From IMG/VR virus record IMGVR_UViG_2049941000_000100: 45,512 bases of DNA; one strand, 5' to 3'. Source of the DNA: an uncultured virus (IMG/VR IMGVR_UViG_2049941000_000100). Lineage: Duplodnaviria > Heunggongvirae > Uroviricota > Caudoviricetes. The notes under the pieces are model-generated. The model had not been told where the DNA came from. It did not search any database and saw only the letters and a program-made list of their open reading frames with translations. Position 1 is the stretch's first letter; every line of letters begins with the position of its first letter. This document shows, piece after piece, positions 6,751 to 28,177 of this stretch. Both the position numbers and the translations under genes were made by a program.

Positions 6751-7007
6751 CATAATCGATGCATAATATGCATAAATATAAATGTATATTTATGCAAAAA
6801 TCCTGCATAATCGGTGTATATTGTGCATAAATTTGCGCGCGAAATAATATATAATATAGTATATAATATACAATCTGCGTCCGAAAGGTAAATAATATAT
6901 AATATATTTTTGCGAATAAAACTTGACAAAAGCCTAAATTTGTGGCCCGGGCACGCCGTATAATTATGCATTTATAATATAAAAAAAGAGGGTTTCCCCT
7001 CTTCTTT

Positions 7008-7313
7008 TTAGTTCTTCTTTTCGGACTTTTTCGCCTTCTTCTCGGCGGCCTTCTGCGCTTTCTTGCGCTTTTCGTCCTCATGGAACGCATAAGCCTGCGC
7101 CGCCTCAAAGGGGTCATAACCGCTACCATCACGAGGACCCTTCGGAATCTTCAAGACGATTTCGATGGCACCTTCCTCGCCGTCCTCGACAATGGGAACT
7201 GCGAAGGTATTGGAACCTGTCTGAAGGATATCGAAGCCAAAGGACTTCAAGGATTCAGTAATGTGGAAAACGAGGGTCTTACGAGATTCTTCACCGATTT
7301 TCTTAGTCGCCAT
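7008..7313 (-). CDS. Array family B protein, copy 1
   Basis: MATKKIGE...IPKG.R.GSGYD..E.AQAY plus Lys-rich tail; AAGGAG RBS. Confidence 0.8.
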   Translation of the reverse strand: MATKKIGEESRKTLVFHITESLKSFGFDILQTGSNTFAVPIVEDGEEGAIEIVLKIPKGPRDGSGYDPFEAAQAYAFHEDEKRKKAQKAAEKKAKKSEKKN

Positions 7314-7343
7314 AGTATTTGCTCCTTTCATCTTTCTAATACT

Positions 7344-7372
7344 ATTATAGACGATAAATACCCATTTGTCAA
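7344..7372 (-). promoter_or_regulatory. Consensus sigma-A promoter (representative of roughly 25-30 in the array)
   Basis: TTGACA-N17-TATAAT on - strand. Confidence 0.85.
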
Positions 7373-7453
7373 TACATAATATTTATTAATTTTTACTGTA
7401 TATTTATGCGCCGGCCCGGACCAAAGGTCCTACTTGGGTTTTTAGATTATATC

Positions 7454-7612
7454 TTATTCAATATAAAAACTTTGAATTTCTACATACTCATTATTACATT
7501 CCGCTTCTAACTGAAAATTCTCGGCTTTTTCTTTTGTTGAGAAAGTTCCTAAAATAGCCCAATCATTTTCATCATTACCACCAATTACAATATATACTTT
7601 ATGTTTTTTCAT
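7454..7612 (-). CDS. Small hypothetical protein (52 aa)
   Basis: MKKHKVYIV...ILGTFSTKEKAE; GGAAAGG RBS; own TTGACA-N17-TATAAT at 7643-7671. Confidence 0.7.
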   Translation of the reverse strand: MKKHKVYIVIGGNDENDWAILGTFSTKEKAENFQLEAECNNEYVEIQSFYIE

Positions 7613-7846
7613 TTTCTTCTTTCCTTTCCTTTTTCTAAATTTATTATAGCATATTAGTACTAAACTGTCAAGGGGATTTGAAAAATTTTTTAGTCCGACT
7701 ATTGCAATCTTTCTTGATGGGTTAGTTTCATCACTCTCGGACAGTGACTACTCGCTCAACCTCTCCCCTTGACACTATTATAATACCACACTCTATAGTA
7801 AAAGTCAATAGGGGAAAATAATATATTATTTTCGCCCGGGCGAACG

Positions 7847-8077
7847 TTACCCCTCTTTCTCTTGCAGAAATTCCTCGACATTATTGGCGATTACTTTACA
7901 ATACAAACCTAAATTATCTTGCATTAAATGGGTTTTGTTCAATAATTCGCCAGTAAAAAGATTTACAACTGCGCCGATGCCATCGCGTGAACATACTTTC
8001 ATGAAGTAGTATGCAGAAAAAGGGAATTGAATAATTGCGCCATCTTTAACACCTGCGTAATGGATAATTTCAGACAT
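7847..8077 (-). CDS. Small hypothetical protein, related to 12470-12703
   Basis: G..(I)F....MK....AV.L..G.L pattern shared. Confidence 0.7.
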   Translation of the reverse strand: MSEIIHYAGVKDGAIIQFPFSAYYFMKVCSRDGIGAVVNLFTGELLNKTHLMQDNLGLYCKVIANNVEEFLQEKEG

Positions 8078-8098
8078 CTTTATTTCATCCTTTATTTT

Positions 8099-8302
8099 TT
8101 AGAAACAAATTACATAAATCAAACTACTTACAACCAAAGGGATTAAACCCTTTCTGAGAAAAGTTACAATGAAAGCGAGAGGGTACCAAATCCAATCTGG
8201 CATATCTACCCAAGTTGAAAGTTCCCAGTCATCTACTCCATTCTGAAAAGTGCGATAAAGGGTCCATCCAACGCAGAATACTATCAAAGCAATAAGTTTC
8301 AT
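8099..8302 (-). CDS. Small two-helix membrane protein
   Basis: Hydrophobic segments, AAAGGA RBS, own promoter. Confidence 0.7.
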   Translation of the reverse strand: MKLIALIVFCVGWTLYRTFQNGVDDWELSTWVDMPDWIWYPLAFIVTFLRKGLIPLVVSSLIYVICF

Positions 8303-8411
8303 ATTTTTTATTTCCTTTCTTTTTTCTAAATATAGTATAGCAGATTAAAATTAAAAAGTCAATACTTCTAATTGTGAACTTTTTATGAACGCCCGGGCCA
8401 AACCGATGACT

Positions 8412-8699
8412 TCAACAGTCATCGGAATAGCAACCCATATAGGGGTCAAATCCCATATCAAGGTCCATCTCCATTTCTTCCTCGTAATCGGGTTCGTCTT
8501 CGTCCCAATCGTCACGAGAAGGCTCGCACTCCCACTTGTCCCAAGAGTCCTCTTCTTCGTATTCTTCGGGATAGTCTTCGGGTTCCTCTGCGCCGCACCA
8601 GTACTCGCAGTTTACATAATCGCCGTCATCGGCATAGGGGCAGTGGTGACGACCATCCAAATCGGGTTCGTCGCAAGGGGTCCATTTCTTAAGACTCAT
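8412..8699 (-). CDS. Very acidic Cys-containing protein
   Basis: C..CPY..C..WC N-terminus, D/E-rich, ends MGFDPYMGCYSDDC; AGGAGG RBS. Confidence 0.8.
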   Translation of the reverse strand: MSLKKWTPCDEPDLDGRHHCPYADDGDYVNCEYWCGAEEPEDYPEEYEEEDSWDKWECEPSRDDWDEDEPDYEEEMEMDLDMGFDPYMGCYSDDC

Positions 8700-8712
8700 T
8701 TTTATATCCTCC

Positions 8713-8895
8713 TTAATAAGTATCGTATCCCATCATTTCGGCCTCTTCGTCAGAGTAAATGCCGAGGCACCGAATCCTCTCGCCTTCCGCAACCTGTCGC
8801 GCCGTATAAAAAGCGCCATTCTTAGTCGTGGACTGAACGAAGAACTCTTCGCCCTCCCATTCACCGCTCATAATCTCGAACAAGTAATTATCCAT
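8713..8895 (-). CDS. Small hypothetical phage protein
   Basis: GEEFFV...EAEMMGYDTY; own promoter. Confidence 0.75.
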   Translation of the reverse strand: MDNYLFEIMSGEWEGEEFFVQSTTKNGAFYTARQVAEGERIRCLGIYSDEEAEMMGYDTY

Positions 8896-8953
8896 TTCGT
8901 TTAGTTCCTTTCCTTATCTTCTATAATTATTATATCACAAGTTTTTTATTTTG

Positions 8954-9127
8954 TCAACTATTTTCTTTTTTATATTTAATAGTTTCTTGACAAAAATATT
9001 CAATATCATTTATACGTAATTTCATAAGTAATGCATAGATAGTATCACAATACAGATAACAATGGTTAATACACCATTTTGCGATATAATTTAACACATG
9101 GTCTTTAAGTTCAAAAAGCCAGTACAT
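8954..9127 (-). CDS. Small hypothetical protein
   Basis: AAGGAG RBS before ATG 9127; own promoter. Confidence 0.55.
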   Translation of the reverse strand: MYWLFELKDHVLNYIAKWCINHCYLYCDTIYALLMKLRINDIEYFCQETIKYKKENS

Positions 9128-9267
9128 TTTATTTTCTCCTTTCATTTTCTGAATATAGTATAACATATAAGTTTTGAAATTGCAATACCTATTTTAATTT
9201 GTTCACAATTTGTTCATAAGTCCGCGGCCCGGGCACGAACGCGCATATTTATACGCGCCCTTGCATA

Positions 9268-9924
9268 TTAATTCGGGAGTCTGTTTGCATAAAGGCAACC
9301 ATCTATGCAACCCCTCCGCAAACATTCCACAAAAATGTCCTTTTCAATCATCACATCTTCAAGTCCTGTATGAGATTCGATAAAATTATTATCGCCACTC
9401 AAATATTTATACAAAACTTCTGCGGTGAACCTCGGTTTTTTATACATAGTCAGATAGTTATTATCGGCGCAAAACTTTTGGTATTCCTTATCTTTTCCAA
9501 AAACTTCTTTGGCCATTTTCAAACTATCCCAAATTTCTACGCCATAAGGGAAGAACCACCGAAACTTTGAGGAAGTCGCATACCTTTGGGAAAGATTGCA
9601 AGATTTATAGTCAAAACTTGCATTATGCGCCACGATTTTCTGTATATTATGCTGAACGCATACATCTTTCAGAATAAATTTTACAGTTTTCAATCTGCGC
9701 AGAAAACGCTTCCCATTCTTAATATCTTCCCAATATTGGGGGATTTTTTCCGCAAAGTATGCGCTTGCCATCAATTCCTTATCGAGAAAAAAATCCGCAA
9801 TTACATAACTATGTGATTCGTATACATGCCCTGTTGCATCAATAACTGCAAACCCAATATCATATACAATGGGGTCATCCAAGGAGTTCGCAGTTTCAGA
9901 ATCAAATACCAAATATTTTTCCAT
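9268..9924 (-). CDS. DEDDh 3'-5' exonuclease (DnaQ-like)
   Basis: ExoI VFDSET, ExoII AHNASFD, WDSL, ExoIII HTGLEDV. Confidence 0.85.
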   Translation of the reverse strand: MEKYLVFDSETANSLDDPIVYDIGFAVIDATGHVYESHSYVIADFFLDKELMASAYFAEKIPQYWEDIKNGKRFLRRLKTVKFILKDVCVQHNIQKIVAHNASFDYKSCNLSQRYATSSKFRWFFPYGVEIWDSLKMAKEVFGKDKEYQKFCADNNYLTMYKKPRFTAEVLYKYLSGDNNFIESHTGLEDVMIEKDIFVECLRRGCIDGCLYANRLPN

Positions 9925-10051
9925 TCGCTTTATTTTCCTTTCCTCAACTCACAAGTAAAGTATACCACCATCAACCGAAAAAGTCAATCCCTAAAATTGT
10001 AAACAAAATATGAACGAGTGCAAATCGCCCGGGGAGTTAGGGATGGTTAAC

Positions 10052-10201
10052 CTAGTCCTCATCCCATCCTCGTTTATGCTTCTGTTTGCGGGAGTATTTT
10101 TTCTTGTCCTTTTCAATGCGAGTGTAAGGTTTTACCCCACCCCAATCGCCACGAATTTTATTGAGTGCGCGCAACTGTGCATCAGAAATTTTTCTTTCCA
10201 T
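10052..10201 (-). CDS. Basic 49-aa peptide, ArfA-like motif (54 aa to TAA 10037 if TAG is read)
   Basis: MERKISDAQLRALNKIRGDWGGVKPYTRIEKDKKKYSRKQKHKRGWDED; TAATG overlap with upstream gene. Confidence 0.65.
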   Translation of the reverse strand: MERKISDAQLRALNKIRGDWGGVKPYTRIEKDKKKYSRKQKHKRGWDED

Positions 10202-10395
10202 TAAAAACCAATTCTCCTTTTGTTTTCTCCACTAATAAGGTTGTAAGTCATGCCCTGTTTTTCATACACAGAAATCTGTGCAGAATTTTTATGCTCTCTG
10301 AAAACCTTATAGTATTCATCGACTTCGGCCTGTTCTTCGACCTCGAAGAAACCATAACTTCCATTAATACCTTTAATCTGAATAATGTACTGCAT
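10201..10395 (-). CDS. Small hypothetical protein
   Basis: AAAGGA RBS, own promoter, ends RRIGF. Confidence 0.7.
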   Translation of the reverse strand: MQYIIQIKGINGSYGFFEVEEQAEVDEYYKVFREHKNSAQISVYEKQGMTYNLISGENKRRIGF

Positions 10396-10633
10396 AACTG
10401 TTTTCCTTTCTTCTTTCTGATATTAGTATACCAAATAGGATTTGAAAAGTCAACCCACTTCACAAAAAGTTCACAATTTATTTTGCCCGGGCCACGCTCT
10501 ACCCTTACATCGACGCACTATTGGCAATTCGCGTAGTCTATAGGCATCAACCACGAGAAAAGGCCTACCCAATGTGCGCCCATGTAAGGATAGGGGGAGA
10601 GGGGTTTGGATACCCCTCTCCGAGGGGTTTGGA

Positions 10634-10972
10634 TTAGAGGGAGTACCCCTTCACAATCCGCTTGTCCACTTGCACATCACTAATGGTGATGTCCGCAATC
10701 CGCTTGCAGATAGCGGTGGCCTTAGAGGTACTCTCGATGCCGTCAATGGCATCACGAATCTGAGAGGCCGTCCGCACCTGATGGTCAGCGAGCAGAGCCT
10801 TCACAGCATCCACGAGGGGAGCATCCTCAGAGGAACGCTTCTCAGCGGCCTTCTGCGCCCTGCGCTCAGCCTCAGCGGCCATCTTCGCAAGCTCAGCCTG
10901 CGCCTTCTCAGCCATCTCAGCAGTCACCACAGCACCCTCAACAACAGCAGTCAGCATTTCCTTCATCGTCAT
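10634..10972 (-). CDS. Array family A protein, copy 2
   Basis: MTMKEML...IESTSKATAICKRI...VKGYSL; AAAGGA RBS; hairpin 10596-10621 downstream. Confidence 0.8.
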   Translation of the reverse strand: MTMKEMLTAVVEGAVVTAEMAEKAQAELAKMAAEAERRAQKAAEKRSSEDAPLVDAVKALLADHQVRTASQIRDAIDGIESTSKATAICKRIADITISDVQVDKRIVKGYSL

Positions 10973-11140
10973 AGTTCTTGTTTCCTTTCTCGTTTTTTNN
11001 NNNNNNNNNNNNNNNNNNNNNNNNNNNNNNNNNNNNNNNNNNNNNNNNNNNNNNNNNNNNNNNNNNNNNNNNNNNNNNNNNNNNNNNNNNNNNNNNNNNN
11101 NNNNNNNNNNNNNNNNNNTAAAATTTCTTTGAAAAATTTT

Positions 11141-11216
11141 TGGTGGGAGAGGGGGGATTCGAACCCGCCACCGCAGTTGAGTAGTGTCAACCTCATTACC
11201 ATTGTGATACTCTCCC
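11141..11216 (-). tRNA. tRNA-like gene with non-canonical anticodon loop (CACUAC)
   Basis: 76 nt: acceptor GGGAGAG/CTCTCCC-A-CCA, D loop AATGGTA, stem GTTGA/TCAAC, GGTTCGAATCC T loop; promoter just upstream. Confidence 0.7.
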
Positions 11217-11361
11217 TTGGAACAATTATAGTATAGCAAATAGGGGTCTAAAAGTCAACCCTTTTTTCAGAACTAAAAGAGTTAATTTGTCCTTTTAATG
11301 GGTCTATTTCGACCCGGGCAAGTTTATGCATCGCGCGCATAAATATGAAAAGAAAGGACTT

Positions 11362-11805
11362 TTATGCAAGTCCTTTCAGAATCTCGATGATATTATTTAC
11401 ATCAAACGCTGTACCTTTCCATTCATTTCGGTTATTACTCTCATCATCGAAGAGAATACCTTTGGGGAAGTTTACCATTGAACTTTTCGGAGTACCATAT
11501 GCAACAATGTGAATTTCGTCAAACTTTACACTTTTCAAATGAGTGGAAAGCCACTTCTTTTTTGCGTTTGTTACTTTCATATCATAATCGCTATTCGGAA
11601 TTTTGGAAAGCCAACTCACGATACCGATTTTATATCCTTTCGCCTGTAAGTTATTCAAAAGTCTTGCAAGACTATTCATATTTACCAAAGGTTTTGCGAT
11701 TTCATAAGGAGTAGAATCATATGCCCTTAACATATCCAACCAGTTATTAACTCCATAAAGATTGGCGATTGTTCCATCCATATCGAAGTAGATTGCTTTA
11801 GTCAT
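11362..11805 (-). CDS. HAD-family 5'(3')-nucleotidase-like protein, copy 1
   Basis: FDMDGTIA motif I, IVSW motif II, K, ILFDD motif IV. Confidence 0.85.
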   Translation of the reverse strand: MTKAIYFDMDGTIANLYGVNNWLDMLRAYDSTPYEIAKPLVNMNSLARLLNNLQAKGYKIGIVSWLSKIPNSDYDMKVTNAKKKWLSTHLKSVKFDEIHIVAYGTPKSSMVNFPKGILFDDESNNRNEWKGTAFDVNNIIEILKGLA

Positions 11806-11955
11806 TTTCGGAAGTCCTTTCCTCTTTTCTTGTCTATATTATAAACTATAAACTTAAATTTGTCAATAACTTTTTTACCCGTTCATAAAAAGTTCACAAT
11901 TGCGCCCGCCCGGGCAAGTTAGCAACCGCTAACCGATGTATAAAAAAAGAGAGTG

Positions 11956-12058
11956 TTAACTCTCCTTTTTCGCCTTTTCGGCTTTCTTTTCGGCCTTTAC
12001 TTTCTTTTCATTCTGCTTGAAAGTGTATGCCTGTGCATCTTCATACACATCATATCCA
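11956..12058 (-). CDS. Array family B protein, 3' fragment cut by gap
   Basis: GYDVYEDAQAYTFKQNEK...ES, nearly identical to 13860 copy. Confidence 0.6.
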
Positions 12059-12469
12059 NNNNNNNNNNCACTTTCTGTAATTATTATAGCACATCTTTTT
12101 CTTTTTGTCAACCCCTTTTTTCAACTTTTTTTAAGTTTTTTTCGGAGTTCTTGGGGAGTGCCATCCCTTACTTTCTGTACTTAGTTTACCATATTCGGCG
12201 TTGGTTGTCAAGGGGTTTTTCAAAATTTCTTTGAAAAATTTTTCGGGGGTCTCTGTGCCAAAGCACTGCTCTCTCCGCCCCTTGACGACCTTCTTTTCCT
12301 TTGAGAGTGAGTGCCCTCGGCTGTTTTCCTCACTCCCTTGGAACAATTATAGTATAGCAAATACCACCCTAAAAGTCAACCCCTTTTTTAAAATTAAAAG
12401 AGTTAATTTGTCCTTTTTATGGGTCTATTTTTCGCCCGGGCGAAAAGGCATAACGCCTTTTTATAGATA

Positions 12470-12703
12470 TTAATTCTCAATATTATGAATGGTTAGTTCG
12501 GCATCAAGTTTTAATACTAACGCATCATCATCATAAGTTGTAAGGCATCCAATGGATAGGCAGACGGCATTGTATTTTTCTTGCTCGGCTTCAATAGAAT
12601 TAATTTTCATACAGATAGAATTATCCATAGGGTCTTTAAAAATTTCACCCCAATTAATGTCTTTAAAAGTTTCAATGTCTGGAGTTTTGTCATTAATTAT
12701 CAT
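12470..12703 (-). CDS. Small hypothetical protein, related to 7847-8077
   Basis: AAAGGA RBS, own promoter. Confidence 0.75.
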   Translation of the reverse strand: MIINDKTPDIETFKDINWGEIFKDPMDNSICMKINSIEAEQEKYNAVCLSIGCLTTYDDDALVLKLDAELTIHNIEN

Positions 12704-12847
12704 AATTTTTATTTCCTTTCTTTTTTTCTAAATATAGTATAGCAAATGAAAGTAAAATTGTCAATACTTNNNNNNNNNNTTGTGAACTTTTTATGAATGT
12801 CCGGGCAATTTATGCACTGCGCGTATAAATATAAAAAGAAAGGACTT

Positions 12848-13291
12848 TTATGCAAGTCCTTTCAGAACTCCAATGATATTATTTACATCGAACGCTGTAC
12901 CTCTCCATTCATTTCGGTTATTACTCTCATCGTCGAAGAGAATACCTTTGGGGAAATTTACCATTGAACTTTTCGGAGTACCATATGCAACAATATGAAT
13001 TTCGTCAAATTTTACGCTTTTCAAATGGATGGAAAGCCACTTCTTTTTTGCGTTCGTTACTTTCATATCATAATCGCTATTCGGAATTTTGGAAAGCCAA
13101 CTCACGATACCGATTTTATATCCTTTCGCTTGCAAGTTATTCAAAAGCCTTGCAAGACTATTCATATTTACCAAAGGCTTTGCGATTTCGTAAGGGGTGG
13201 AATCATATGCCCTTAACATATCCAACCAGTTATTAACTCCATAAAGATTGGCGATTGTTCCATCCATATCGAAGTAGATTGCTTTAGTCAT
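12848..13291 (-). CDS. HAD-family nucleotidase-like protein, copy 2
   Basis: Differs from copy 1 at only a few residues. Confidence 0.85.
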   Translation of the reverse strand: MTKAIYFDMDGTIANLYGVNNWLDMLRAYDSTPYEIAKPLVNMNSLARLLNNLQAKGYKIGIVSWLSKIPNSDYDMKVTNAKKKWLSIHLKSVKFDEIHIVAYGTPKSSMVNFPKGILFDDESNNRNEWRGTAFDVNNIIGVLKGLA

Positions 13292-13433
13292 TTTAGGAAA
13301 TCCTTTCCTCTTTTCTTGTCTATATTATAACGTATATTTTTAAATTTGTCAATAACTTTTTTACTCGTTCATAGAAAATTCATAATTGCGCCCGCCCGGG
13401 CAAAGAGGCATAACGCCTCGTTATAATTAATAT

Positions 13434-13649
13434 TTATTCTCCATCTAATAGGAGTTCTCCCAAATTATTTTCAACTCGTTCAATACAGCAAACTTCACAG
13501 TCTTCTTGATAGATAGCCTCAATAAGTTCTTGCGAAAGTTGGTTTGCTCCTTCAAAGTCCCTACTCCAGAAATCTTCGCTGGCGAGAATATCAAACTTGT
13601 CATCAACTTTGACTTCAATTTCTTTAATAACTTTTGCAATTACTTTCAT
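13434..13649 (-). CDS. Small acidic hypothetical protein
   Basis: AAGGAG RBS, TAA stop. Confidence 0.7.
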   Translation of the reverse strand: MKVIAKVIKEIEVKVDDKFDILASEDFWSRDFEGANQLSQELIEAIYQEDCEVCCIERVENNLGELLLDGE

Positions 13650-13859
13650 ATTACTCTCCTTTTAATTATTTAATATTCTGATATGATTGAATCAATAAGG
13701 TCTCAAAGTAGTTCCCATCTTTTTATTTTCCTTTCCTTTTTCTAAATATAGTATAACAAAAGAATTCTTATTTGTCAACTCTTTTTTTAGAAAAAAATAA
13801 TATATTATTTGCGCCCGGTCGGTTAGCAACTGTTAACCAACGTATAAAAAAAGAGAGTA

Positions 13860-14289
13860 TTAACTCTCCTTTTTCGTCTTTTCGGCTTTCTTTTCGGCCT
13901 TTACTTTCTTTTCGTTCTGCTTGAAAGTGTATGCCTGTGCATCTTCATACACATCATATCCACTCCCATTACGTTCGCCCTTGGGAATCTGAAAGACTAC
14001 CTTGACGGCAGTTTCTTCTTCACCCTCTACTGCGGGGATACCATAAGAACCAGATGCGACTTGCAACACATCATATCCTGCGGCAATCAACGCATTNNNN
14101 NNNNNNGCGTTCGCCCTTGGGAATCTGAAAGACTACCTTGACGGCAGTTTCCTCTTCATTTTCTACTGCGGGGATACCATACGAACCAGATGCGACTTGC
14201 AACACATCATATCCTGCGGCAATCAACGCATTTTTGCAAATCTCCATAATCCGCGCGCGAGTGGATTCGCCAATCTTCTTTTGTACCAT
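13860..14289 (-). CDS. Array family B protein (middle part duplicated across a 10-N gap)
   Basis: MVQKKIGESTR...GYDVLQVASGSYGIPAVE...IPKGERNGSGYDVYEDAQAY; another 5' end at 14599-14636. Confidence 0.7.
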
Positions 14290-14374
14290 TAAATTTTCCC
14301 CTTTCATTTTTTCTAATATAATTATATCATAAAATTTAAATTTTGTCAAGTTTTAATTTTAAATTTTAATTTTA

Positions 14375-14456
14375 TTCCAAGGGGTTTACGTTCGTCAACG
14401 TTGGGACTCGAACCCATTTGGGATTTTGGCTGCCACCCTTTTCCATCCCCTTGGAA
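14375..14456 (-). ncRNA. Candidate small RNA with tRNA-type T arm
   Basis: Closing stem TTCCAAGGGG/CCCCTTGGAA, internal TGGGTTCGAGTCCCA, promoter directly upstream, no ORF. Confidence 0.5.
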
Positions 14457-14713
14457 CACTTATATTATAAACTATAAAATTCAAAATTGCAAGTCCTTTT
14501 TAGAAAATATATAATATATTATCTGCGCGCCCGGGTGAGTTAGCATACGCTAACTCGTATGTAAAAAGAAAAGGGCAGTTATGCCCTTNNNNNNNNNNTG
14601 CGCGCGAGTGGATTCGCCAATCTTCTTTTGTGCCATTAAATTTTCCCCTTTCATTTTTTCTAATATTATTATATCACAAAATTTAAATTTTGTCAAGTTT
14701 TAANNNNNNNNNN

Positions 14714-14898
14714 CACCCTACGGTGTTAAGGGCTCGTACCTCTCTCGGCATGTAATCCTCGCCGCGCTTTTACTTCGGTTCCCCGACTTACGGACTCTCG
14801 TGGGTCTCTGGCTTTACAGTAGCGGGCTTCGCTTTCGCGGGCTGAACGCTGGCTCCTTGCCGAAGGGTTTTAAGGGTTTTCCTTCCCTCACTTTCTGT
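14714..14898 (-). ncRNA. Candidate GC-rich structured RNA
   Basis: Follows TTGACA-N17-TATAAT (14903-14931); no ORF recognised; TCGGCA/TGCCGA pairing, CGC-GAAA-GCG tetraloop. Confidence 0.4.
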
Positions 14899-15116
14899 AG
14901 TTATTATACCACAGAATGGTTTCTTTGTCAAGAGGTTTTTCAAACTTCTTGGAGGAGTTGGGTGGCCTTCCCTTCCCTCATCTTCTGTAAGTATTATAGC
15001 ACGCGCTTGTTAAAAAGTCAATAGGTTTTTAAATAATATATAATATATAATTTGCGCGCCCGGGCAATAGTTAGCATATGTTAATCTGCGCCGTAAAAAT
15101 AAAAGCCTTTCGGCTT

Positions 15117-15566
15117 TTACTTACAATTCATGTCCAACCATTCTTTCATTTTTTTACTTTCACTATAAATTTTGATTTTAATGCCGCCGCCATTTTTTTT
15201 GCTTTCTCTATCGAGGGCGGCGAACTTGTGAATGAACTTGGAGAATTCGTTGATGTTCATGAAGTAAGTGTCGCAATCGTTAAGGACGAGGGCGAAAGTA
15301 TCGGAATGAGTGTTCTTGCGGAACCGCCGCCAAATACCCTCGAAAGTGTGGCAACCCTTGCAAAAACCGCCGCTCATGAGGGTTGCGCTCGGAGTTTTGA
15401 CGGAGATGTTCATGTTGTCCAGTTCAATGTCGGAACCCACATTGTAAGGAGTCTTATCATGTGTCGTGCGCTCGATGCCGTAGTAGTTGCAGAGAGACCA
15501 TTCTTTGTTGATGCCGTTGTTCTTGGTGGCGGTGATTTCGAAATCTTTGATGTTGATGTGTTTCAT
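15117..15566 (-). CDS. Hypothetical protein, possible PD-(D/E)XK nuclease fold
   Basis: E...SDIE....ISVK...ATL pattern; AAAGGA RBS; own promoter. Confidence 0.7.
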   Translation of the reverse strand: MKHINIKDFEITATKNNGINKEWSLCNYYGIERTTHDKTPYNVGSDIELDNMNISVKTPSATLMSGGFCKGCHTFEGIWRRFRKNTHSDTFALVLNDCDTYFMNINEFSKFIHKFAALDRESKKNGGGIKIKIYSESKKMKEWLDMNCK

Positions 15567-15963
15567 GTTTTTGTTTTCCTTTCTTTTGATGTCTTAAGTA
15601 TACACTATAAAACCGGGTTTGTCAACTACTTTTTTTATTGTTCATAATTTGTTCATAAATTCGCCTTCGCCCGGGCAAGATGTATATATGCAGTATAAAT
15701 GAGTATTTATACATTGAACTGTTGCTTCTCTGTTTGCGTCCCCTCTGTGGTGCCACTCCTTGTCTCTTTCTAATATTATTATAACATAAAAAAAAGGATT
15801 TGTCAACCCCTTTTTTATTTTTTTTCTGTTTTATTTGTNNNNNNNNNNAGTATATTTATGCACAAAACCGTTGCTTCTCTGTTTGCGCTCCCTCTCGGTA
15901 CCACTCCCCGTCTCTCTTTCTAATATTATTATAACATAAAAAAAGGATTTGTCAACCCCTTTT

Positions 15964-16155
15964 TTATTTTTTTTCTGTTTTATTTGTTAAATTATGAAAC
16001 ACGATACCGTCAACATGCTGTGCTTCTAATTGTGCAACCCATTCACTATTGAATGTAGCATGGCAATAAAACTGCCCACGATAGACTTTAGCCACAATGA
16101 ATTCGCGTTTTTCATCTGTAGAGGTCATTCCGGAAATGTAAACATTAGTAAGCAT
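15964..16155 (-). CDS. Small hypothetical protein
   Basis: AAGGAG RBS, own promoter. Confidence 0.7.
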   Translation of the reverse strand: MLTNVYISGMTSTDEKREFIVAKVYRGQFYCHATFNSEWVAQLEAQHVDGIVFHNLTNKTEKK

Positions 16156-16210
16156 TTTTTTATCTCCTTTTCTTTTTCTGATTAGATTATATCACGGGGA
16201 AAGGGATTTG

Positions 16211-16345
16211 TCAACCCTTTTTTAGAATTTTTTTATTTTTTCCAATGGTTCCAACCAATTCCCAACCATCAAATTGGGGAATCCAATCCACTGGCATTTC
16301 ATAAATTTTCCCAGTATAAATACTTTTCCAAAGATTAACTTTCAT
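16211..16345 (-). CDS. Small hypothetical protein (44 aa)
   Basis: MKVNLWKSIYTGKIYEMPVDWIPQFDGWELVGT; RBS and promoter. Confidence 0.6.
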   Translation of the reverse strand: MKVNLWKSIYTGKIYEMPVDWIPQFDGWELVGTIGKNKKILKKG

Positions 16346-16499
16346 TTTTTAATTCCCTTTCCTTTTTCTTGACTTAAGTATACCATACTTATTCCGGTTT
16401 GTCAACTACTTTTTTAAAATATATAATATATAATTTTGGGAGTTGGCCCGGGCCAGTAGTATTTAACGAATAGTTGAAAGTATAAAAAATAGGAGAATT

Positions 16500-16685
16500 T
16501 TATTCTCCTACCATTTCATTATATATTATATCCATTACATCTTTTGCGTCTTCTTTGCTTTGACATTCAATAGTCATATATTCATCGGAATTTTTGAAAT
16601 ATAACTTGATTATTGAGTGGACAATCATCGCATTACGAATTTCTTCGCAATTTATGATATTTCCATAAATATAAACGACTTTCAT
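16500..16685 (-). CDS. Small hypothetical protein
   Basis: GGAGG RBS before ATG 16685. Confidence 0.7.
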   Translation of the reverse strand: MKVVYIYGNIINCEEIRNAMIVHSIIKLYFKNSDEYMTIECQSKEDAKDVMDIIYNEMVGE

Positions 16686-16689
16686 ATTC

Positions 16690-16785
16690 TTACCTCCCAA
16701 AAATCTCGGAAATTTTGAAAACCAAAACGGTACGCCAGTTCTCGAACCCGTATTTTGCGATTACCTTATTCTGCAACTTCTTCAT
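16690..16785 (-). CDS. Small peptide (31 aa)
   Basis: MKKLQNKVIAKYGFENWRTVLVFKISEIFGR; GAGG RBS, promoter. Confidence 0.55.
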   Translation of the reverse strand: MKKLQNKVIAKYGFENWRTVLVFKISEIFGR

Positions 16786-16865
16786 TTTTCTGTACCTCTT
16801 TCTCTTTTCTTGATTAAATTATACACTATAATTTCCGGATTGTCAATACTTTTTTTGAAAAAAGT

Positions 16866-17006
16866 TTATCCTAAAAGCCATAAAATTGTGAGAAAACTGG
16901 CGGCGCCGAAAATTGCGGGAATAAGAATCCTACAAATCCAAATCACGTCAAAGAGGAAAGAATAAGGACGGACTTTTATGATTTTGTTAAGAACACGAAT
17001 TTTCAT
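16866..17006 (-). CDS. Small membrane peptide (46 aa)
   Basis: GAGG RBS, hydrophobic C-terminus. Confidence 0.55.
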   Translation of the reverse strand: MKIRVLNKIIKVRPYSFLFDVIWICRILIPAIFGAASFLTILWLLG

Positions 17007-17217
17007 GGAATTTTCCTCTCTTTTTATTTTCTAAATAAATTATATCGTAAAATTATGAATAATTCAAGTTTTAAATATTAAGAAATTTTAAACTGCTGGC
17101 GGCGCGCCCGGGCAAATTAAAATATGAATAAATTATGAACAATTATAAAATCCGGTTGACAATAGAAAAATATAGTGTATAATATAGGTAGAAAGAGAGA
17201 AAGAGAGGAAATAAAAA

Positions 17218-17382
17218 ATGTTCACTCTGAATTACAGTAGAGGTATAAAATGGAATGGTTATATGCACTTCGATAGTGAGATTGATGCAATCAATACTGC
17301 GTGGGGTATGTACGTTGAGAAGTTTGCCGATAAAGTAACTGTTACTGATAAAGATGGGAACGTTGTTTACCATATGGCATAA
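17218..17382 (+). CDS. Small hypothetical protein in an inverted cassette (54 aa)
   Basis: TTGACA(17156)-N16-TATAAT, GAGG RBS, TAA stop, hairpin 17386-17411. Confidence 0.75.
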   Translation: MFTLNYSRGIKWNGYMHFDSEIDAINTAWGMYVEKFADKVTVTDKDGNVVYHMA

Positions 17383-17520
17383 AGATATAGTTACTATATA
17401 GTAACTATATATTTATATCTGCTGGCGGCTACCTTAGTTAGCGACCGCTAACCTTTGCCCGGGCAAGAGTTAGTCTATGCTAACTAACTATTAACCTCCC
17501 ATTTGCTTTTGTTATGGTTC

Positions 17521-17958
17521 TTATGCGAGAGACTTGAGAACGTTGATGATGTTGGAAGGCGTGTATGCTTTGCCGTTCCAGTTTGCTCTATTGGCGGCCT
17601 CATCGTCAAAGAGGATTCCACCACCGCAGAGAGTGGATTTATTAGTTCCGTAAGGTACAATATGGATTGTGTCAAATTTGATGCTTCCCAGATGCTTCTT
17701 CAACCATTTGATTTTGCTGGCGGCAACCTTTGCATTGTAGTTTGCGCTTCCGCCTTTAGAAGTCCAACTAATGATGCCGACTTTATAACCTTTGGCCTGT
17801 ACCTTGTGGATTGCTTTGGCAAGAGTGTTCATGTTGCCGATAACGCTGGCGGCGGTGTAAGGGCTTGCGTCCTCGGCTACCAGTTTGGCAAGCCAGTTAG
17901 GAACGTTGTAGAGGTCTGCGATTGTGCCGTCCATATCGAACCAAATTGCCTTTTTCAT
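17521..17958 (-). CDS. HAD-family nucleotidase-like protein, copy 3 (diverged)
   Basis: FDMDGTIADLY, IISW, ILFDDE. Confidence 0.85.
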   Translation of the reverse strand: MKKAIWFDMDGTIADLYNVPNWLAKLVAEDASPYTAASVIGNMNTLAKAIHKVQAKGYKVGIISWTSKGGSANYNAKVAASKIKWLKKHLGSIKFDTIHIVPYGTNKSTLCGGGILFDDEAANRANWNGKAYTPSNIINVLKSLA

Positions 17959-18041
17959 TGCCTTAGCTCCTCTCTTAGCTTCTGTCTTATTATACTATAT
18001 TGCTGGCGGCTTGTCAACCCCCAGGGGGCCCGGGCCAGGGG

Positions 18042-18500
18042 TTAGGCCCCCAGGCCCGCCAGGCTCTTCTCGTTTGCGAAGGTGGCTTTCGTGTACTTGA
18101 TTTGGTACTTGATTCCGTCCACCGTCAGGTCCCCGTCCTCGGTGAAAGGTACGTTGTCTTTCGCCCATTCCTGACCAGCGGCCTCGGTGACCAGCTTCTC
18201 GAAAATCTCACCCCGATTGTACTTGCTGGCCTTAACCGTGGCTTCGAAAGTCGCTTCGTCGCACACCACCTGCGCGCCCATAGCCAACAGAGCCGCTTTG
18301 AGTTCGTTCTTCGGATTGAAGCGCAGGCTTGCTGTCCGAGAGCGACTGTCATAATCCATGCAGGTTACAGCCTCGAGAGCTTCAGCCGTCATATGCATGC
18401 AGGTCACGGCGTAAACCGTCTTCTTGTAGGCAAAGCCGAAAATATAGTTGTGAGTGGCCGCCGCTTCATTGTACCGCTTTACCATGCTAAAGTGTTTCAT
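18042..18500 (-). CDS. Hypothetical protein, possible PD-(D/E)XK-like fold
   Basis: GEIFEK...GDLTVDGIKYQIK..ATF; GGAGG and AAGGA upstream of ATG 18500. Confidence 0.7.
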   Translation of the reverse strand: MKHFSMVKRYNEAAATHNYIFGFAYKKTVYAVTCMHMTAEALEAVTCMDYDSRSRTASLRFNPKNELKAALLAMGAQVVCDEATFEATVKASKYNRGEIFEKLVTEAAGQEWAKDNVPFTEDGDLTVDGIKYQIKYTKATFANEKSLAGLGA

Positions 18501-18832
18501 ATCCTTAAAACCTCCGAACGTTGGGACGGTTCTCCGTCCTCTTGAGTACAGTATACGCCCATATAGGCCCATTTACAAGGGGATAAGGGTATAGTTCACA
18601 GATAGTTCACAATTTAACGTTTATCATTAAAATCTCTTTTTCGGGATAAAAGATACAAAATTTTGAAGTATATACCATACTTTTATATATCATATATTAT
18701 ATACAAAAAAATCCCCACGGGGGAGTGGAATTGGGTAAAATGTGAACTTTTTATGAACGGGTGCAAGCGCCCGTTAGCATACGCTAACTCGTATGTAAAA
18801 AGAAAAGGGCAGTTATGCCCTTTTCCTATGGA

Positions 18833-19174
18833 TTACAGAGAGTAACCCTTGACAACCCTCTTGTTGACAACGACCTCGCTCACCTTGACACCCTCGACCA
18901 TCTTCAAGATGGCGGTGGCCTTAGAGGTAGAGTCGATGCCCTCGATGGCATCCTTGACCTCGGCGGCGGTGAACACCTTAGAGGAGTTCCGCAGAAGGTT
19001 CGTGACGGCCTCGACAAAAGGCGCATTTTCGGCGGCACGCTTCTCGGCGGCCTTGGAGTTACGGCTTGCGTTCTCCTTATCCATCTTCAAGATGGCATTG
19101 GCGGCGAACTCACGCAGTTCGGCAGAGAGGTTCTCGTTGGTGGCAATAGCATTGTAGAATTCCTTGGTACGCAT
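18833..19174 (-). CDS. Array family A protein, copy 3
   Basis: MRTKEFY...IDSTSKATAILK...VKGYSL; AAAGGA RBS. Confidence 0.8.
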   Translation of the reverse strand: MRTKEFYNAIATNENLSAELREFAANAILKMDKENASRNSKAAEKRAAENAPFVEAVTNLLRNSSKVFTAAEVKDAIEGIDSTSKATAILKMVEGVKVSEVVVNKRVVKGYSL

Positions 19175-19680
19175 AGTTTTTTTATTTCCTTTCTTGCGTT
19201 GGTCGCAACCCTTTCTATTTAGTAAGGACTTTCGTCTCTCACTTTCTGAATTCATTATACCATAGGTTTGGTAGTTTGTCAAGGGGTTTTTCAAATTTCT
19301 TTGAAAAAGTTTTTTGGAGAATTTGTGTGACGAACTGCAGAAGTTCACACGCCTCGGGGCACTCCCCATTGGGCACTTGGTTCGTTCCTTCATCTCCTTG
19401 GAACAATTATAGTATAACCGATAGAGGGATAAAAGTCAATGGGTTTTTAAATAATATATAATATATTATCTCGGCGGCCCGGGTGAAAGTTAGCAAGTGC
19501 TAACCTATATATAAAAAGAAAGGGGNNNNNNNNNNNNNNNNNNNNNNNNNNNNNNNNNNNNNNNNNNNNNNNNNNNNNNNNNNNNNNNNNNNNNNNNNNN
19601 NNNNNNNNNNNNNNNNNNNNNNNNNNNNNNNNNNNNNNNAATAAATTTTTCATTTAGATATATTTTAATAAGTCTAAAAT

Positions 19681-19765: not shown

Positions 19766-21202
19766 TTGGAAAATAAAAAATCTTATTTAACGTAGGGAAA
19801 TAGACTTAACCTTAACTTTTCTATTCCCTATACGGATGAACGAACCGAATTCGTTTCTACCTATCTAAATTCCGATACGTTTTCCTATACTCCTCCTACT
19901 AACGCCGAACTAGAGACTATGGCAAATTATATATTATGGGGTAAATAGAGAGATACGGAAACTAACGTAGTTCAAGATAAGCTAATTGAAATCCCTACGC
20001 GCTCTAAAACATGGGATAGGTCCCAAAAAACCGAATCGCTCGACGCTTTATTAGCCCAACCGACTTTTAGCGAGCAATAGATAAATTCCCTAAACGGGAC
20101 TAAATATCGCTACCCTAAAGAAACGCTCTCGCGCGCATAGGTACGTAAAGAAACCGATTCCGATAAAAACCCTATATTTAACGACCTATGGAATCGTATA
20201 GACGAACTCGAACTCGAACTAAACTACTACGACCTTATCCACGGAAAGCGTAATACCGAACCTAGGTCCGAACTAGTAGAAAAATTCGACGAATGCGCTC
20301 AATAGACAATAAAAGAGCGCGCCGCAACTCTATCCCAATTTACCTATCTTAAAAAACGCCACTTATTAGTAGAACTAAGACGCGAATAGTTTACTCTAAG
20401 GGATACCGTAAAACCTACTATATTACCCCACTAGACGAACTCCGCTATCGATATATATAATAACGGGCCTATGGAACTGGATAGCGACGTACTTGTAAGT
20501 CCTATTGGATTAGTTTATAATACCGATTTAAGTAGGAAATTATTTAATACGTCCCGTTTTCCTATCCCTTCGGATTTTACATAGGACGAATTAGGTAGTC
20601 TACTTAAATCCTACTGGATGCGGAAGGCGGCCGTTGGGAAAAATTATATAGTTTTCGATTTTAGTAATACAGCCCACGTAGGAGAGGTATTTAGTTTATA
20701 CGACACGTTACGAGTAAGCGAGGACGACGTATTTTCTACTACCCCAGAATTTATAGATACATTATAGTACTATATTACTATGGCGGATTTAACTAACGTT
20801 TAGCGCGCAATTTTAGACCTTAAGCTAAAGCGCGTATCGAATGTAGATATAGCGGGGGGTATAAACGCGGAATACGGAAAATCGTATACGGTAAATTATA
20901 TAAGTACTATATTCCGCCAAAAAATTATACCGTCTATTTGCGCGGCGGCCTAGACTTAGGCGGAGATAATAGAGAATTTACCGTACCCCGAAAACTTTAA
21001 AAAGTGTAAGACGTGCGGCCGCGTACTACTTAGTACGCCTTAGAATTTCGTACGGAAAAGTAGGTCACCAGACGGTTTATCGACTTAGTGTAAGAAATGC
21101 GACCGAGAAGCCCGCGTAAAAGCAAAAGAAAAAATTAAGCCTTTATATTATACGTAGGAGAAGAACGATAACGATGGAAGAGATAAAGAATTAGGAGATT
21201 AA
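19766..21202 (+). CDS. ~478-aa protein with C-terminal HTH-like region and Cys4 finger (putative regulator); needs TAG=Gln
   Basis: GGAGG then TTG; frame interrupted only by TAG where read; LTNVQRAILDLK...SNVDIA...NYISTI; CKTCG...CKKC; absent from ORF track. Confidence 0.8.
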
Positions 21203-21437
21203 ATATCCATATCCCGAATTTTTAAAAGCCTTAGCTAAACTTAGACCGGAAGAGTTATTAGGACTCGCTAAGTTTATGGGAGTAAAACTTTTTAAAGACG
21301 ACGAAAAGGATGAGAAAGGAAATCCATTACCTTAGAGCGGAGAGTTTATAGTTTAGGGAATTATAGATAAGTATCCGACTTTAGGGCGTAAGGTTAGGAG
21401 ATAGATTTTAAAGATAGTTAAATAGGCAGGTAAATAA
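21174..21437 (+). CDS. Hypothetical protein (87 aa, TAG=Gln)
   Basis: AGGAG upstream, five in-frame TAG, TAA stop. Confidence 0.7.
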
Positions 21438-21670
21438 ATAGAAGTAGTTAAACGTAGATATTATACGCTGAGGGCGCGCGACGGACGAATTTATATAATC
21501 TTCGATAACACGCGGAACGGATGCCGCGCTATCTACGTTAAATCTACTTTTACTTTTTACTTTTATTTTTATATAGGACGTATAAATGCGCGCGTCCTAT
21601 AATTTTTATTATATTCTATGCGCGGCCGACCGCTACGCGGATTTATTATAAACGGCTGCTGGAGGGGGAT

Positions 21671-22511
21671 ATGGGGGTAAAACCAAATANNNNNNNNNNA
21701 TATCTGAAGATTTTAATTGGGCAATGGTAGATAAAATTTGCTAGATGGCAGATATTCCATTCGTACCAAGGGAATTTGAACGTTTACACGATGCTAATGG
21801 GGATGATGTTTTTCCTGTATATGCGCGTGTTTTCTAGGGGTAGGAATACGAATCTATTGGATGGGACGACTATTTTAAAGAATTTAAGACATTAAAAGAA
21901 ACTAGACTTATAGAGGACGAATTACCTTTAATTGGGGATGAGAAAATTTAGAAGTTGCGCGCGAAATGGGGAGATAACTATGACGCCGATTAGCTTATAT
22001 ATTTAGAAGACCTTTATAATGGTATGTTAGTTACATAGAATATTAATGGCGCCCTCTAGATTANNNNNNNNNNTGTATGATTTCACTTGAATTGGAATCT
22101 CGCATTCGTGCGGGCGCCGACTTCGATAAATTATTATCTTCTTATGATAAGTTAGTTAAGGTTGCGGAATTTACTCCGAAGAACGTAAAAAATGCTAATG
22201 ACTTTGATTCTGTAGGCGAACTTATAAAATGGCTTGAGAAGAGAGGTTGGAAGAATAAGTTTTACGATGGAGTTACTCGGGATGTTATAGATGAGACTAT
22301 AAAGAATATCCAAAACTATAACTAGCGTCTTTATATTAACGAAAGCGGAATAGGTGAGGAAATTAGTCGCCGTATCGAATAGCTTAAGATAGCGGATGAA
22401 GCGGAGACGGATTATTATGGCCTTGGTTCATATGACTCATTAGACGATTATGATAATGAGGGGTATGAATAGTTAATGAAAGAAGATAATGAGTTTAGGG
22501 GTGATATTTAA
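21671..22511 (+). CDS. Conserved protein upstream of terminase (possible small subunit); gapped, TAG=Gln
   Basis: GGAGG RBS; open frames either side of gaps; TAATG overlap with terL. Confidence 0.7.
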
Positions 22512-24776: not shown

Positions 24777-26267
24777 ATGAGTGTAATTAAAGACTTAGGT
24801 GATTTAGCTTCCTTTTAGAAGATATAGGATGAAATGGTTGCAACTTCAGACACGTTTTGGAGCAATTCTTATTCTTATACTTCCGGATGGAATCAAAAAA
24901 TTAAAAACTACACAATTGAAGAAGTAGCCGCAATTATAAATTCAGGTTCAAGACTTTAGCAACAAATATTATCATAGAATTATTTTTATAAAGACGGTCT
25001 TTATCGTCGTATTATTACTTATTATGCAACGCTTTTAAAATATACTGGTCTTGTTATTCCCAATAGTGATAAGACTAAAAATCTCTCCACTCCAGGCATT
25101 ACAAAAAAGTATAATAAGGCGGTAGATTTCGTAGAAGATATAAAAACTTCTACTCTATTTACTGAAATAAGTTATAGGGTCTTAGTAAATGGTATTTACT
25201 ATGGTATTATTTTAAGTAGCGAAAAAAATAATTTTGTACTTATGGATTTACCTTTCTCATATTGCCGCACTCGTATGAAGGATTGGCTTGGGAACGATAT
25301 AATTGAGTTTAATGTTTCATACTTTGATAGTATATCAGATGATAGTATGAAAGAATATGCTTTGAAAGTATATCCTAAGGTAATTACTTCTTATTATCGG
25401 AAATGGGTAAAAGGTACAGTGTCGAAAAATGACCCTTGGGTTATTATTCCAGCGAAAATTGGGGTTTGTTTTTAGTTATTTGATGGACGTCCTTTCTTTT
25501 TAAGTGTTATCCCTGCGGCAATCAATTATGATAATGCGGTTGAGACAGAAAGAGAAAGAGATTTAGAAGAAATAAGAAAGATTATTGTTCAGAAAATTCC
25601 CCATCTTACTGATGGCGGCCTTTTGTTTGAGCCACTTGAGGCAGCGGAAATACATAAAGGCACCGTTGGGATGATGAGAGGAAACAAAAATGTTTCTGTT
25701 CTTACAACCTATGCGGACGTCGATGCGATTGTATCTAATACATCGAATGATTCGACGAAAAATAATTTAGAGAAGAATTTATAGAATGTTTATAGCGAAG
25801 CGGGGACTACTAGTTAGTTATTTGCGGCGACTGGAAATCTTTCTATTGAGACTTCTATTAAAAATGATACCGCGTTAATGATGGTATTAGGTAATAAATA
25901 TAGTAATTTTATTAGTTTTCTTTTAAATGATAAGTACGGAAATAGTTCTATTTCATTTAAGTATTCTATTTTAGATATTACATATTATAATGAGTCTACT
26001 TATATTTCTGATGCTCTTAAGCTCGCGCAGAATGGATATAGCTATATCTTGCCCGCATTAGCTATGGGAATTAGTCAAAGAGACTTAATTAATATTAAAG
26101 AAATAGAGAATAATGTATATAAATTAGGAGAATAGCTAATACCATTAAAATCTTCCTATACTTAGTCTTCTGCAGACGTCGGTCGTCCTCGTTTGCCGGA
26201 CGACTAGAAATCTGATAAAACTATAGCAAACGAAATTTCACTAGATGCTTAGGGAGGCTCTGAATAA
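24777..26267 (+). CDS. Portal protein (TAG=Gln)
   Basis: ~496 aa right after terL; C-terminal PLKSSYT[Q]S..GRP. Confidence 0.8.
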
Positions 26268-27588: not shown

Positions 27589-27608
27589 ATTCTTTGGAGG
27601 AATATAAA

Positions 27609-28157
27609 ATGGCTTTAACAAGATTAGTTATTGACGGTTATGGTCAGGTCGAATTAAACCAGGTTGCGTTCCGTCGGGATGGTCGTGTTGCTGCTCAGTG
27701 CAAGCCCAATGCCACTGATTTTGCTAGCAAGGCTCTCGAAAATGGTATGTTACTCGTTGTTGACGAAGTAAAGCGCGAAGTACGCCTTCCTGGCGCCACC
27801 GAAGCCGAGCCTGTTGCTCTGGTTTATAGCTCTGAGCATATGTATGACGAGAGAGCTCGTGCTCTTAAGAACTTCCAGAATGATATGTTCTTACCTCGTC
27901 TTGGTTACCTCGCCGTTGGTGATAGGTACACCACAAATTGTCTGTCCTATGATAGCACTGAATTTGCTACTGAGGCAGCCTTGAAGACCGCTATTGATGC
28001 GGCTGCTACTACAGCTGTTTATGCTGGTATTTCTACTGATGGTTCTCACAAGCTGAGTGCCACAAAGCCCTCTTACGGCCCCGTCATGAAGGTTCGTAAT
28101 GGTTTCACTATGCCTGATGGCACTTACGGTGTGCAGTTAGTCTGCGTATAGGCGTAA
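27609..28157 (+). CDS. Head decoration/cement-like protein
   Basis: Between scaffold and capsid; GYGQVELN, ENGM, TMPDG motifs; ends GTA-TAG-GCG-TAA. Confidence 0.75.
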
Positions 28158-28177
28158 TTTTGAAGGAGGATAAGAAT

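Follow-up and report, generated by a model that had tools for sequence, protein, structure and literature searches.

A reversed gene cassette between palindromic joining sites in the early region of a recoded rumen phage: a fixed rearrangement rather than a switch

Our results show that one small gene of an uncultured rumen phage lies reversed, together with its promoter, between two copies of a palindromic joining site. The reversal is an old, fixed rearrangement common to the phage's relatives and not an on/off switch. The DNA that we analysed, here called the window, is a stretch of 45,512 nt (IMG/VR record IMGVR_UViG_2049941000_000100), and the reversed unit at 17106-17464 is the only plus-facing unit of its early-gene array. 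As to how the unit was turned round, we lean towards a rare crossover that was guided by the only inverted homology on offer and would have kept promoter, gene and one dyad at each junction.

The window is part of a large, tailed, TAG-recoded phage and is available as a gapped scaffold. Its structural genes, among which tape-measure and virion families were matched, begin at 19.7 kb, and a comparison of translations shows that they are open throughout only if TAG is read as glutamine. Late genes at 19766-33874 need table 15 (TAG = Gln); the array genes fit table 11. The sequencing runs that contain the stretch are mostly bovine gut metagenomes. Consensus sigma-70 promoters precede the small genes of the variable region, and such arrays are found in 21 records. 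Between 5 and 20 kb there are 30 promoter-like sites on the minus strand and two on the plus strand, the second of which, at 19681, lies beyond the array. Seven promoters between 15000 and 19500 match the consensus at 12 of 12 positions, and the sole one on the plus strand is that of the reversed unit. CCCGGG occurs 18 times in the window, every copy within 6946-19478, and GCCCGGGC is matched 22 times with at most one mismatch (4.3 expected).

Several other features of the array deserve mention. CCGG is found inside the -35/-10 spacer of array promoters (15613, 16130, 16394 and 16835 in the window), and in relatives whole GCCCGGGC sites often lie inside promoter spacers (L080; L064/L050). This spacer is where one would classically expect a repressor or a methyl mark to sit. 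A HAD cassette is present in two 94%-identical copies (11312-11915 and 12799-13401), and on either side their homology stops precisely at the sites. The third HAD paralogue, at 17521-17958, is more distant. The left edge of the array (5300-6900) is AT-rich and carries repeated AAAATTT, AAATTTGAC and GCAGCTG words, which are found in L001 and L090 too. This stretch is possibly a genome end or an origin.

The initial annotation described a cassette exactly inverted between sites 17106 and 17457, and this is borne out: promoter and gene lie on the plus strand, unlike the rest of the array (Table 1). It also took the accessory motifs to be mirrored, which is true of two of them. The double TTCAYA/TRTGAA repeat stands to the left of seven other sites and to the right of 17106 alone; the GTTAG-N6-CTAAC dyad stands to the right of seven sites and, within the window, to the left of 17457 alone. 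It is not true of CTGCTGGCGGC, which reads on the same strand outside and inside the unit. The GTTAG dyad is also a weaker marker of polarity than was assumed, as in relatives it occurs on the promoter side too in 18 of 235 ordinary junctions. What had been read as a plus-strand hairpin is a strandless, perfect 26-bp palindrome without a terminator call, and the terminator scan called none at either end of the unit. The GTTAC-N6-GTAAC within this palindrome is a variant of the GTTAG arm motif. The breakpoints of homology coincide with the sites, and the promoter arm starts 10 nt inside the left core. At the ends of the unit lies an 11-bp inverted repeat, the longest among the 20 adjacent site pairs of the window; the pair 17106/17457 is the only one with an exact inverted match of at least 11 bp.

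Table 1. Features of the reversed unit, its surroundings and the dyads with asymmetric centres in relatives (window positions unless a record is named)
Feature	Position	Strand	Remarks
Array of promoter-RBS-small gene units	6945..19484	-	21 GCCCGGGC-type joining sites; N gaps
Left neighbour: 46-aa gene with a weak promoter (17067-17039)	16866..17067	-	unchanged in L027 and L029
CTGCTGGCGGC, outer copy	17093..17103	+	left of left core, outside the unit
Left core GCCCGGGC	17106..17113		divergent junction; back-to-back promoters 38 and 42 nt away
Left arm of 11-bp inverted repeat	17106-17116		left core and the following AAA
TATGAA direct repeat, 11-nt period	17123..17139	+	promoter-side arm in mirrored position; common to the G011 homologue
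Sigma-70/SigA-type promoter TTGACA-16-TATAAT	17156..17183	+	promoter scan
Shine-Dalgarno-like AGAGG	17204..17208	+	sequence
54-aa protein gene, unnamed phage family	17218..17382	+	ORF, homologues, predicted fold
Perfect 26-bp AT-rich palindrome	17385..17410		contains GTTAC-N6-GTAAC; kept in L027 and L029
CTGCTGGCGGC, inner copy	17419..17429	+	inside the unit; un-mirrored 11-bp direct repeat
Inner GTTAG-N6-CTAAC dyad	17437..17452		4 nt left of right core
Other arm of 11-bp inverted repeat	17454-17464		includes right core
Right core GCCCGGGC	17457..17464		convergent junction
Outer GTTAG-N6-CTAAC dyad	17469..17484		4 nt right of right core
Right neighbour: HAD-family 5'-3' deoxyribonucleotidase-like gene	17521..17958	-	unchanged in L027 and L029
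Asymmetric-centre dyads, L104	12505/13006, 18973/19816		
Asymmetric-centre dyads, L095	15803/16439		
Asymmetric-centre dyads, L090	7642/8270		

One could argue that the reversal is an assembly artefact, given the N gaps of the scaffold and what is probably a mis-join near 18773 (within 18773-19520). There the independent contig X1, from a run that may be the source, departs from the window at 18772, X6 runs on into the sequence of window 19640, and the cassette at 18773-19520 sits upstream in X6 and L027, behind a site matching 14529. The unit itself, however, contains no N, as had been noted, and X1 covers 15913-18772, both sites included, with 0 differences. X6 is collinear with the window over 16399-18783 (106 differences). 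X8 likewise reaches across the two sites, X5 across the left one only, and all of these contigs have the window's arrangement, which L027 and L029 also show across both sites. An artefact is therefore hardly credible.

The gene is carried by three metagenome records, two of which (L027 and L028) are 99% identical, leaving two lineages. In both lineages the unit is reversed between the same neighbours. Its identity to the window is 86% in L027 and 80% in L029, and that of the adjoining HAD gene 73% and 72%. The initial annotation named a fixed orientation and homology breakpoints away from the sites as evidence against it; the first holds for the close relatives and the second does not. Every close relative examined has the same orientation, and there is no flipped form among L027/L028, L029 and the contigs X1, X5, X6 and X8. 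In the sequencing runs, orientation was judged from contigs (four runs, among the joints listed), which drop rare variants. Two opposite-strand joints (15850->17106 in X5 and 15913->17119 in X6) were rejected as evidence of inversion because their short sides (45 and 32 nt) appear to fit a paralogous arm at 15630-15657, which is 89% complementary to 17123-17150. More widely, one of 44 related locus pairs (at least 2.5 kb at 75% or more; six of the 44 pair overlapping parts of one genome or involve a duplicate record) has a piece on the opposite strand.

These results bear on the idea of an active, phase-variable switch. In Mu Gin/gix, P1 Cin, Salmonella Hin and the R64 shufflon Rci/sfx a segment between two sites inverts, through an adjacent serine or tyrosine invertase acting on sites of fixed geometry with an asymmetric centre, and populations are mixed. 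Our unit resembles these systems in that a segment between two sites, here palindromic and bounding one unit exactly, is found in reverse. It differs from them in that no invertase was found in the relatives searched, arm spacing is variable, and a single orientation is seen in all lineages and runs. Moreover, promoter and gene flip together, so that expression need not change. A switch of the Gin/gix or shufflon kind is thus scarcely plausible.

The unit was probably reversed long ago, and forward was probably its ancestral orientation, judging from the sequences of its homologues: a homologue in a distant phage (G011; 47-50% amino acid identity) faces forward with its array, whereas both close lineages are reversed. 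The G011 homologue has kept the TATGAA arm; it has other neighbours and no flanking GCCCGGGC. Homologues of reversed genes at 74% amino acid identity or more are also reversed, where classed. We found no empty or forward version of the exact locus, as a pattern scan of IMG/VR returned no relative of the gene, the mirrored-arm pattern matched 0 records and a search with the neighbour at 18042-18500 returned none.

Another question is how common such reversals are in the family. A pattern scan of IMG/VR yielded 19 records with the same type of array; the set of 21 arrays consists of IMG/VR records, the window, L027 and L029 (G012 was dropped as a duplicate of G015). Twelve of the 21 are uniform and nine contain reversed genes. 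The HAD gene led to further loci of the same layout whose dyads are different, namely GCCGGC-centred ones, TTGGATGT-N3-ACATCCAA, TTAGATGT-N3/4-ACATCTAA and a TAATTA..ACG..TAATT type. In a set of 20 hand-picked reversed blocks, whose junction windows were also set by hand (we excluded doubtful gene calls as well as the dyad types of L108/L112), both ends carry a dyad in 18 blocks, and one each in 16; the 16 include the window, in which a second CCGG adjoins the -35 box. The blocks of G018 and L100 have one end without a dyad, and two junctions of L144 without CCGG are further exceptions. Unrelated dyads of other clades, including AT-rich ones without CCGG, show like reversals. The core is present at six or more of eight positions at 24 of 28 switch junctions, but also at 294 of 349 ordinary tandem junctions. 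For this reason we rejected core presence as a test, and the dyads at the ends of reversed blocks amount to consistency, not proof.

The junctions themselves are more specific in their arms. By script, the core lies between two GTTAG dyads at 8 of 9 convergent junctions of the window clade and G002/G019 (the ninth was recognised by eye), and at 3 of 235 ordinary junctions. This is what one would expect if two terminator-side arms had been joined at the core. The distance from core to GTTAG is 1-7 nt, and the motif is missing from 176 of the 235 ordinary junctions. Exact cores are found at 5 of 14 convergent junctions, where the core has no promoter to serve, versus 9 of 14 divergent ones, and perfect AT-rich dyads at promoterless convergent junctions in L104 and L095. 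Where the dyad has an asymmetric centre (Table 1), this centre is inverted between the two ends in three of four reversed cassettes (by chance about 1/3), as recombination between inverted repeats would favour.

Some arrays are rearranged on a larger scale. In G001 (155447-175543; L047, L038) whole gene blocks are reversed, and this array has 30 exact sites with the longest extended palindromes (mean 11.5 bp). Many GCCGGC-type arrays (several of L084-L119) consist of two divergent arms around a promoter-rich central gap. Several reversed genes across these clades belong to the same two families, and from their sequences some of these reversals may be very old.

Inversion in place happens in this family. 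L093 and L098 are collinear over about 9 kb at 66-80% identity, and at one locus they share a cassette that faces opposite ways in the two records and has a core at either end. The crossover fits best as a symmetric one at 17-26 nt inside the cores, where the inverted homology is extended (score 102.5 versus 86.5 at the core centre, for the right junction only, as the left is too diverged).

Array comparisons show that units are gained, lost or replaced by recombination at linkers, including a clean insertion or deletion of 1330 nt at a core (L055/L062), and several homology breaks at cores are exact to a few nucleotides. Of 96 alignment ends outside genes in eight pairs, 19 lie no more than 12 nt from a core, against an expectation of 6.5 (binomial p 2e-5), and 14 in promoters; cores were masked for this count, which may draw ends towards them, and the ends are not independent. 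Cores and promoters both serve as seams. They differ in what they offer: between adjacent junctions, chosen to contain an exact core, the strongest inverted shared word is the core in 96 of 99 pairs, and the strongest direct one is the core in 75, the promoter in 13 and another word in 11. A gene cannot be turned round by promoter linkers, which have a direction, but it can be where the seam is a symmetric operator; that this happens is shown by the unit at 17106-17464 together with L093/L098.

Alternatively, the unit could derive from a circle or from another phage and have been inserted the wrong way round, at the core or at the neighbour's promoter arm, duplicating CTGCTGGCGGC. The two copies of CTGCTGGCGGC bracket core, promoter, gene and palindrome, an arrangement partly kept in L027 and L029, and the un-mirrored repeat fits an insertion better than a flip. 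The different neighbours and missing GCCCGGGC of the G011 homologue point the same way, as do the L055/L062 event and the mini-circles described for T4-type phages in passages of PMC2839356. However, CTGGCGG is clustered here, with six copies on one strand at 16897-18010, so that two copies need not be a target duplication. In addition, the two-sided GTTAG junction, rare elsewhere, is predicted by a flip at the cores, and in-place inversion is known from L093/L098. We regard a reversed insertion as unlikely, though as a possibility of some substance.

The CTGGCGG word was also considered as a Chi-like signal and rejected, since it has neither polarity nor enrichment across the family (38 versus 43 copies in the HAD loci, 8 in the whole of G001 and 4 in the whole of G005). 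One other copy lies in the window, at 18056 on the opposite strand. Some of the copies at 16.9-18.0 kb fall inside genes and a promoter spacer; L027 and L029 have three at about the corresponding position, and another three are found close to the G011 homologue.

What, then, is the dyad for? Its likeliest primary role is that of a docking site for a transcription protein, of phage or host, at the early promoter. The distance from core to -35 box is phased at 10.5 nt (R 0.26, 0 of 5000 jitters; n = 177, one genome per clade). A role at promoters only does not explain the perfect dyads at the promoterless junctions of L104 and L095. Paralogous small proteins at 6062-6406, 10634-10972 and 18833-19174 recur in many arrays; the two that were tested have no match in Pfam or PHROG, and these proteins are candidates for a dyad-binding protein.

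The homology-guided crossover that we favour would follow from such a role. The dyad would serve foremost as a docking site for a protein acting on the adjoining early promoter. Promoters and ribosome-binding sites repeat head-to-tail and would thus provide only direct homology, leading to gain, loss and swap of units. The dyad reads alike on both strands and would be the only inverted homology between two junctions. On rare occasions the phage's general recombination kit (a Sak4-like annealase and a RuvC-like resolvase) or template switching might produce a crossover there; in our unit it would fall in the 11-bp inverted repeat GCCCGGGCAAA...TTTGCCCGGGC. The flip would leave promoter and gene intact, with one dyad at each end, and so give a viable product. 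For annealase-driven recombination 11 bp is short, and in five of six cases the reversed units of G002/G019 have an exact inverted match of only 4-6 bp; both count against a crossover guided by homology. Nor does the length of inverted homology predict reversals well: 73%, 31% and 0% of adjacent pairs have an inverted match of at least 11 bp in G001, G003 and G002, where we find many, none and three reversals, respectively.

Our enzyme searches were run on related records, whose terminase-region proteins resemble the window's by eye, rather than on the window's own replication genes. Tyrosine recombinases (PF00589), resolvases/invertases (PF00239) and Y1 transposases (PF01797), the enzymes of REP/RAYT and IS200/IS605 (HUH) elements, were found in none of 19 related records, large serine recombinases (PF07508) in none of 19 records of an overlapping set, and PF00589 in none of five further records with other dyads. 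A Sak4-like AAA_24 protein is present in 11 of the 19, including all seven near-complete ones. G001, in which 129 of 188 called proteins were scanned against Pfam, encodes a Sak4-like protein (E 7.7e-57), a Holliday-junction resolvase (E 7e-13), a RecJ-like nuclease and an ATP-dependent ligase. According to passages of PMC5928155, Sak4 anneals single strands and tolerates divergence; these passages give no minimum homology length.

Excision, integration and inversion could also all be the work of a dedicated, site-specific recombinase, either a host enzyme or a member of a family not yet recognised. It would bind the dyads and carry out strand exchange at the symmetric core. The core-plus-two-arms layout of the convergent junctions would suit such an enzyme. 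So would the enrichment of breaks at cores, several of them exact within a few nucleotides, the perfect dyads kept where no promoter follows, and the inverted asymmetric centres in three of four cassettes of L104, L095 and L090. Its sites, however, would have arms spaced at anything from 1 to 7 nt and wholly different sequences between clades, and they are phased to the -35 box. Close relatives show no orientation polymorphism, the best fit in L093/L098 is off-centre, and no tyrosine, serine or Y1 enzyme was found in relatives. This reading is doubtful. The initial annotation inferred recombination at a palindromic, orientation-free site. The confinement of breakpoints to the sites, the enrichment of breaks at cores in relatives and the in-place inversion of L093/L098 support this view in part. 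An active, reversible, site-specific system is unsupported, because orientation is fixed, recombinases of the tested families are missing from the records searched, arm spacing varies, 14 of 96 ends lie in promoters and the L093/L098 crossover lies inside the cores.

Another reading would have a nuclease cut the CCGG/CCCGGG core and the phage ligase rejoin the symmetric ends either way. CCGG is indeed the invariant centre across the GCCCGGGC and GCCGGC clades, and G001 has an ATP-dependent ligase. Nevertheless, CCGG is frequent throughout the genome (24-67 copies per 20 kb of G001), and the clades with AT-rich dyads show the same reversals without it. Cutting and joining is very unlikely. We also considered CCCGGG avoidance outside the arrays as a sign of a nuclease and rejected it, since the avoidance is too weak.

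A bolder proposal is that these rumen phages encode a dyad-binding protein outside the known recombinase families with two functions: regulation of the early promoters, and strand exchange, either catalysed or targeted by it, at the palindrome specific to its clade. We think this improbable. If it were true, the early region would work as a self-contained platform for cassettes in either orientation, the analogue of an integron but in lytic phages, with sites and enzyme evolving together. Whether seams act as passive homology or as targets of an enzyme can be tested cleanly on the arrays. Seams of this kind tie a regulatory element to evolvability in a large family of uncultured phages, even though the unit at 17106-17464 is itself a historical scar.

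Linker-guided shuffling of accessory genes is already known from T4-type phages; our arrays add the evidence for inversion. PeSL cassettes of RB49 and phi1 (Arbiol et al. 2010, PMC2839356) form a hyperplastic early region of small genes. As far as the passages of that paper considered here go, each small early gene has a host-type consensus promoter, units are gained, lost and swapped between linkers, and no dedicated recombinase was identified, all as in our arrays. The conserved element there is a GC-rich terminator stem-loop in or beside the promoter, whereas here it is an 8-bp dyad apart from terminators. PeSL crossovers were mapped between -10 box and ATG, and many breaks here are at the dyad upstream of the -35 box. 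The PeSL passages describe insertion, deletion and replacement, and here inversions occur too; among the matches to invers/invert listed for PMC2839356 (12 of 21) we found inverse PCR and no DNA inversion. Our array thus shuffles like PeSL, departs from it in linker and crossover position, and adds inversion. By analogy, the T4 deletions at GGGC/GCCC motifs (Mosig 1998, cited in PMC2839356) are a possible parallel to the array breaks. In the parts of the literature on cassette arrays, recoded rumen phages, operator shuffling and palindromic inversion that we consulted, there is no published description of the GCCCGGGC element. Lambdoid morons resemble our unit as single genes with their own promoters, often opposite to their neighbours, but are said to be independent of conserved flanks (passages of PMC2839356), whereas the ends here are the array's own linkers.

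Integron attC arrays and Xer/dif modules share with our array a row of single-gene units with a recurring site. Integron cassettes are mostly promoterless, all face one way and end in attC. The inner CTAAC...GTTAG pair looks similar to the integron RYYYAAC...GTTRRRY, and the arm motifs may be like Rex, DtxR or attC motifs. Unlike integron cassettes, units here carry their own promoters and some are reversed; PF00589 was not found in the relatives searched. The element also differs from attC in its length of about 25-45 bp, its variable spacing and its lack of L boxes, and the 11-6-11 layout of Xer/dif is absent.

Finally, the product of the reversed gene is a 54-aa protein with seven close homologues at 72-98% identity and eight profile matches; Pfam, PHROG and the ESM Atlas gave no usable match. 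Its model (pLDDT 93.9) has a predicted beta-beta-alpha-beta-beta fold, which is common among small phage proteins. The best match among solved structures is T4 Dmd (PDB 5hy3 chain B; Z 7.6, rmsd 1.9, 52 of 54 residues) at 8% identity and a Foldseek E of 0.71. A profile search of PDB sequences returned no match to Dmd at E<=10, and many unnamed phage proteins fit the model as well as Dmd or better. Like the 54-aa protein, the antitoxin Dmd is a small early phage protein, of similar size and predicted fold. Dmd neutralises RnlA/LsoA-type HEPN nucleases, and for the 54-aa protein a counter-defence role, suggested by its structural model, is a lead only.
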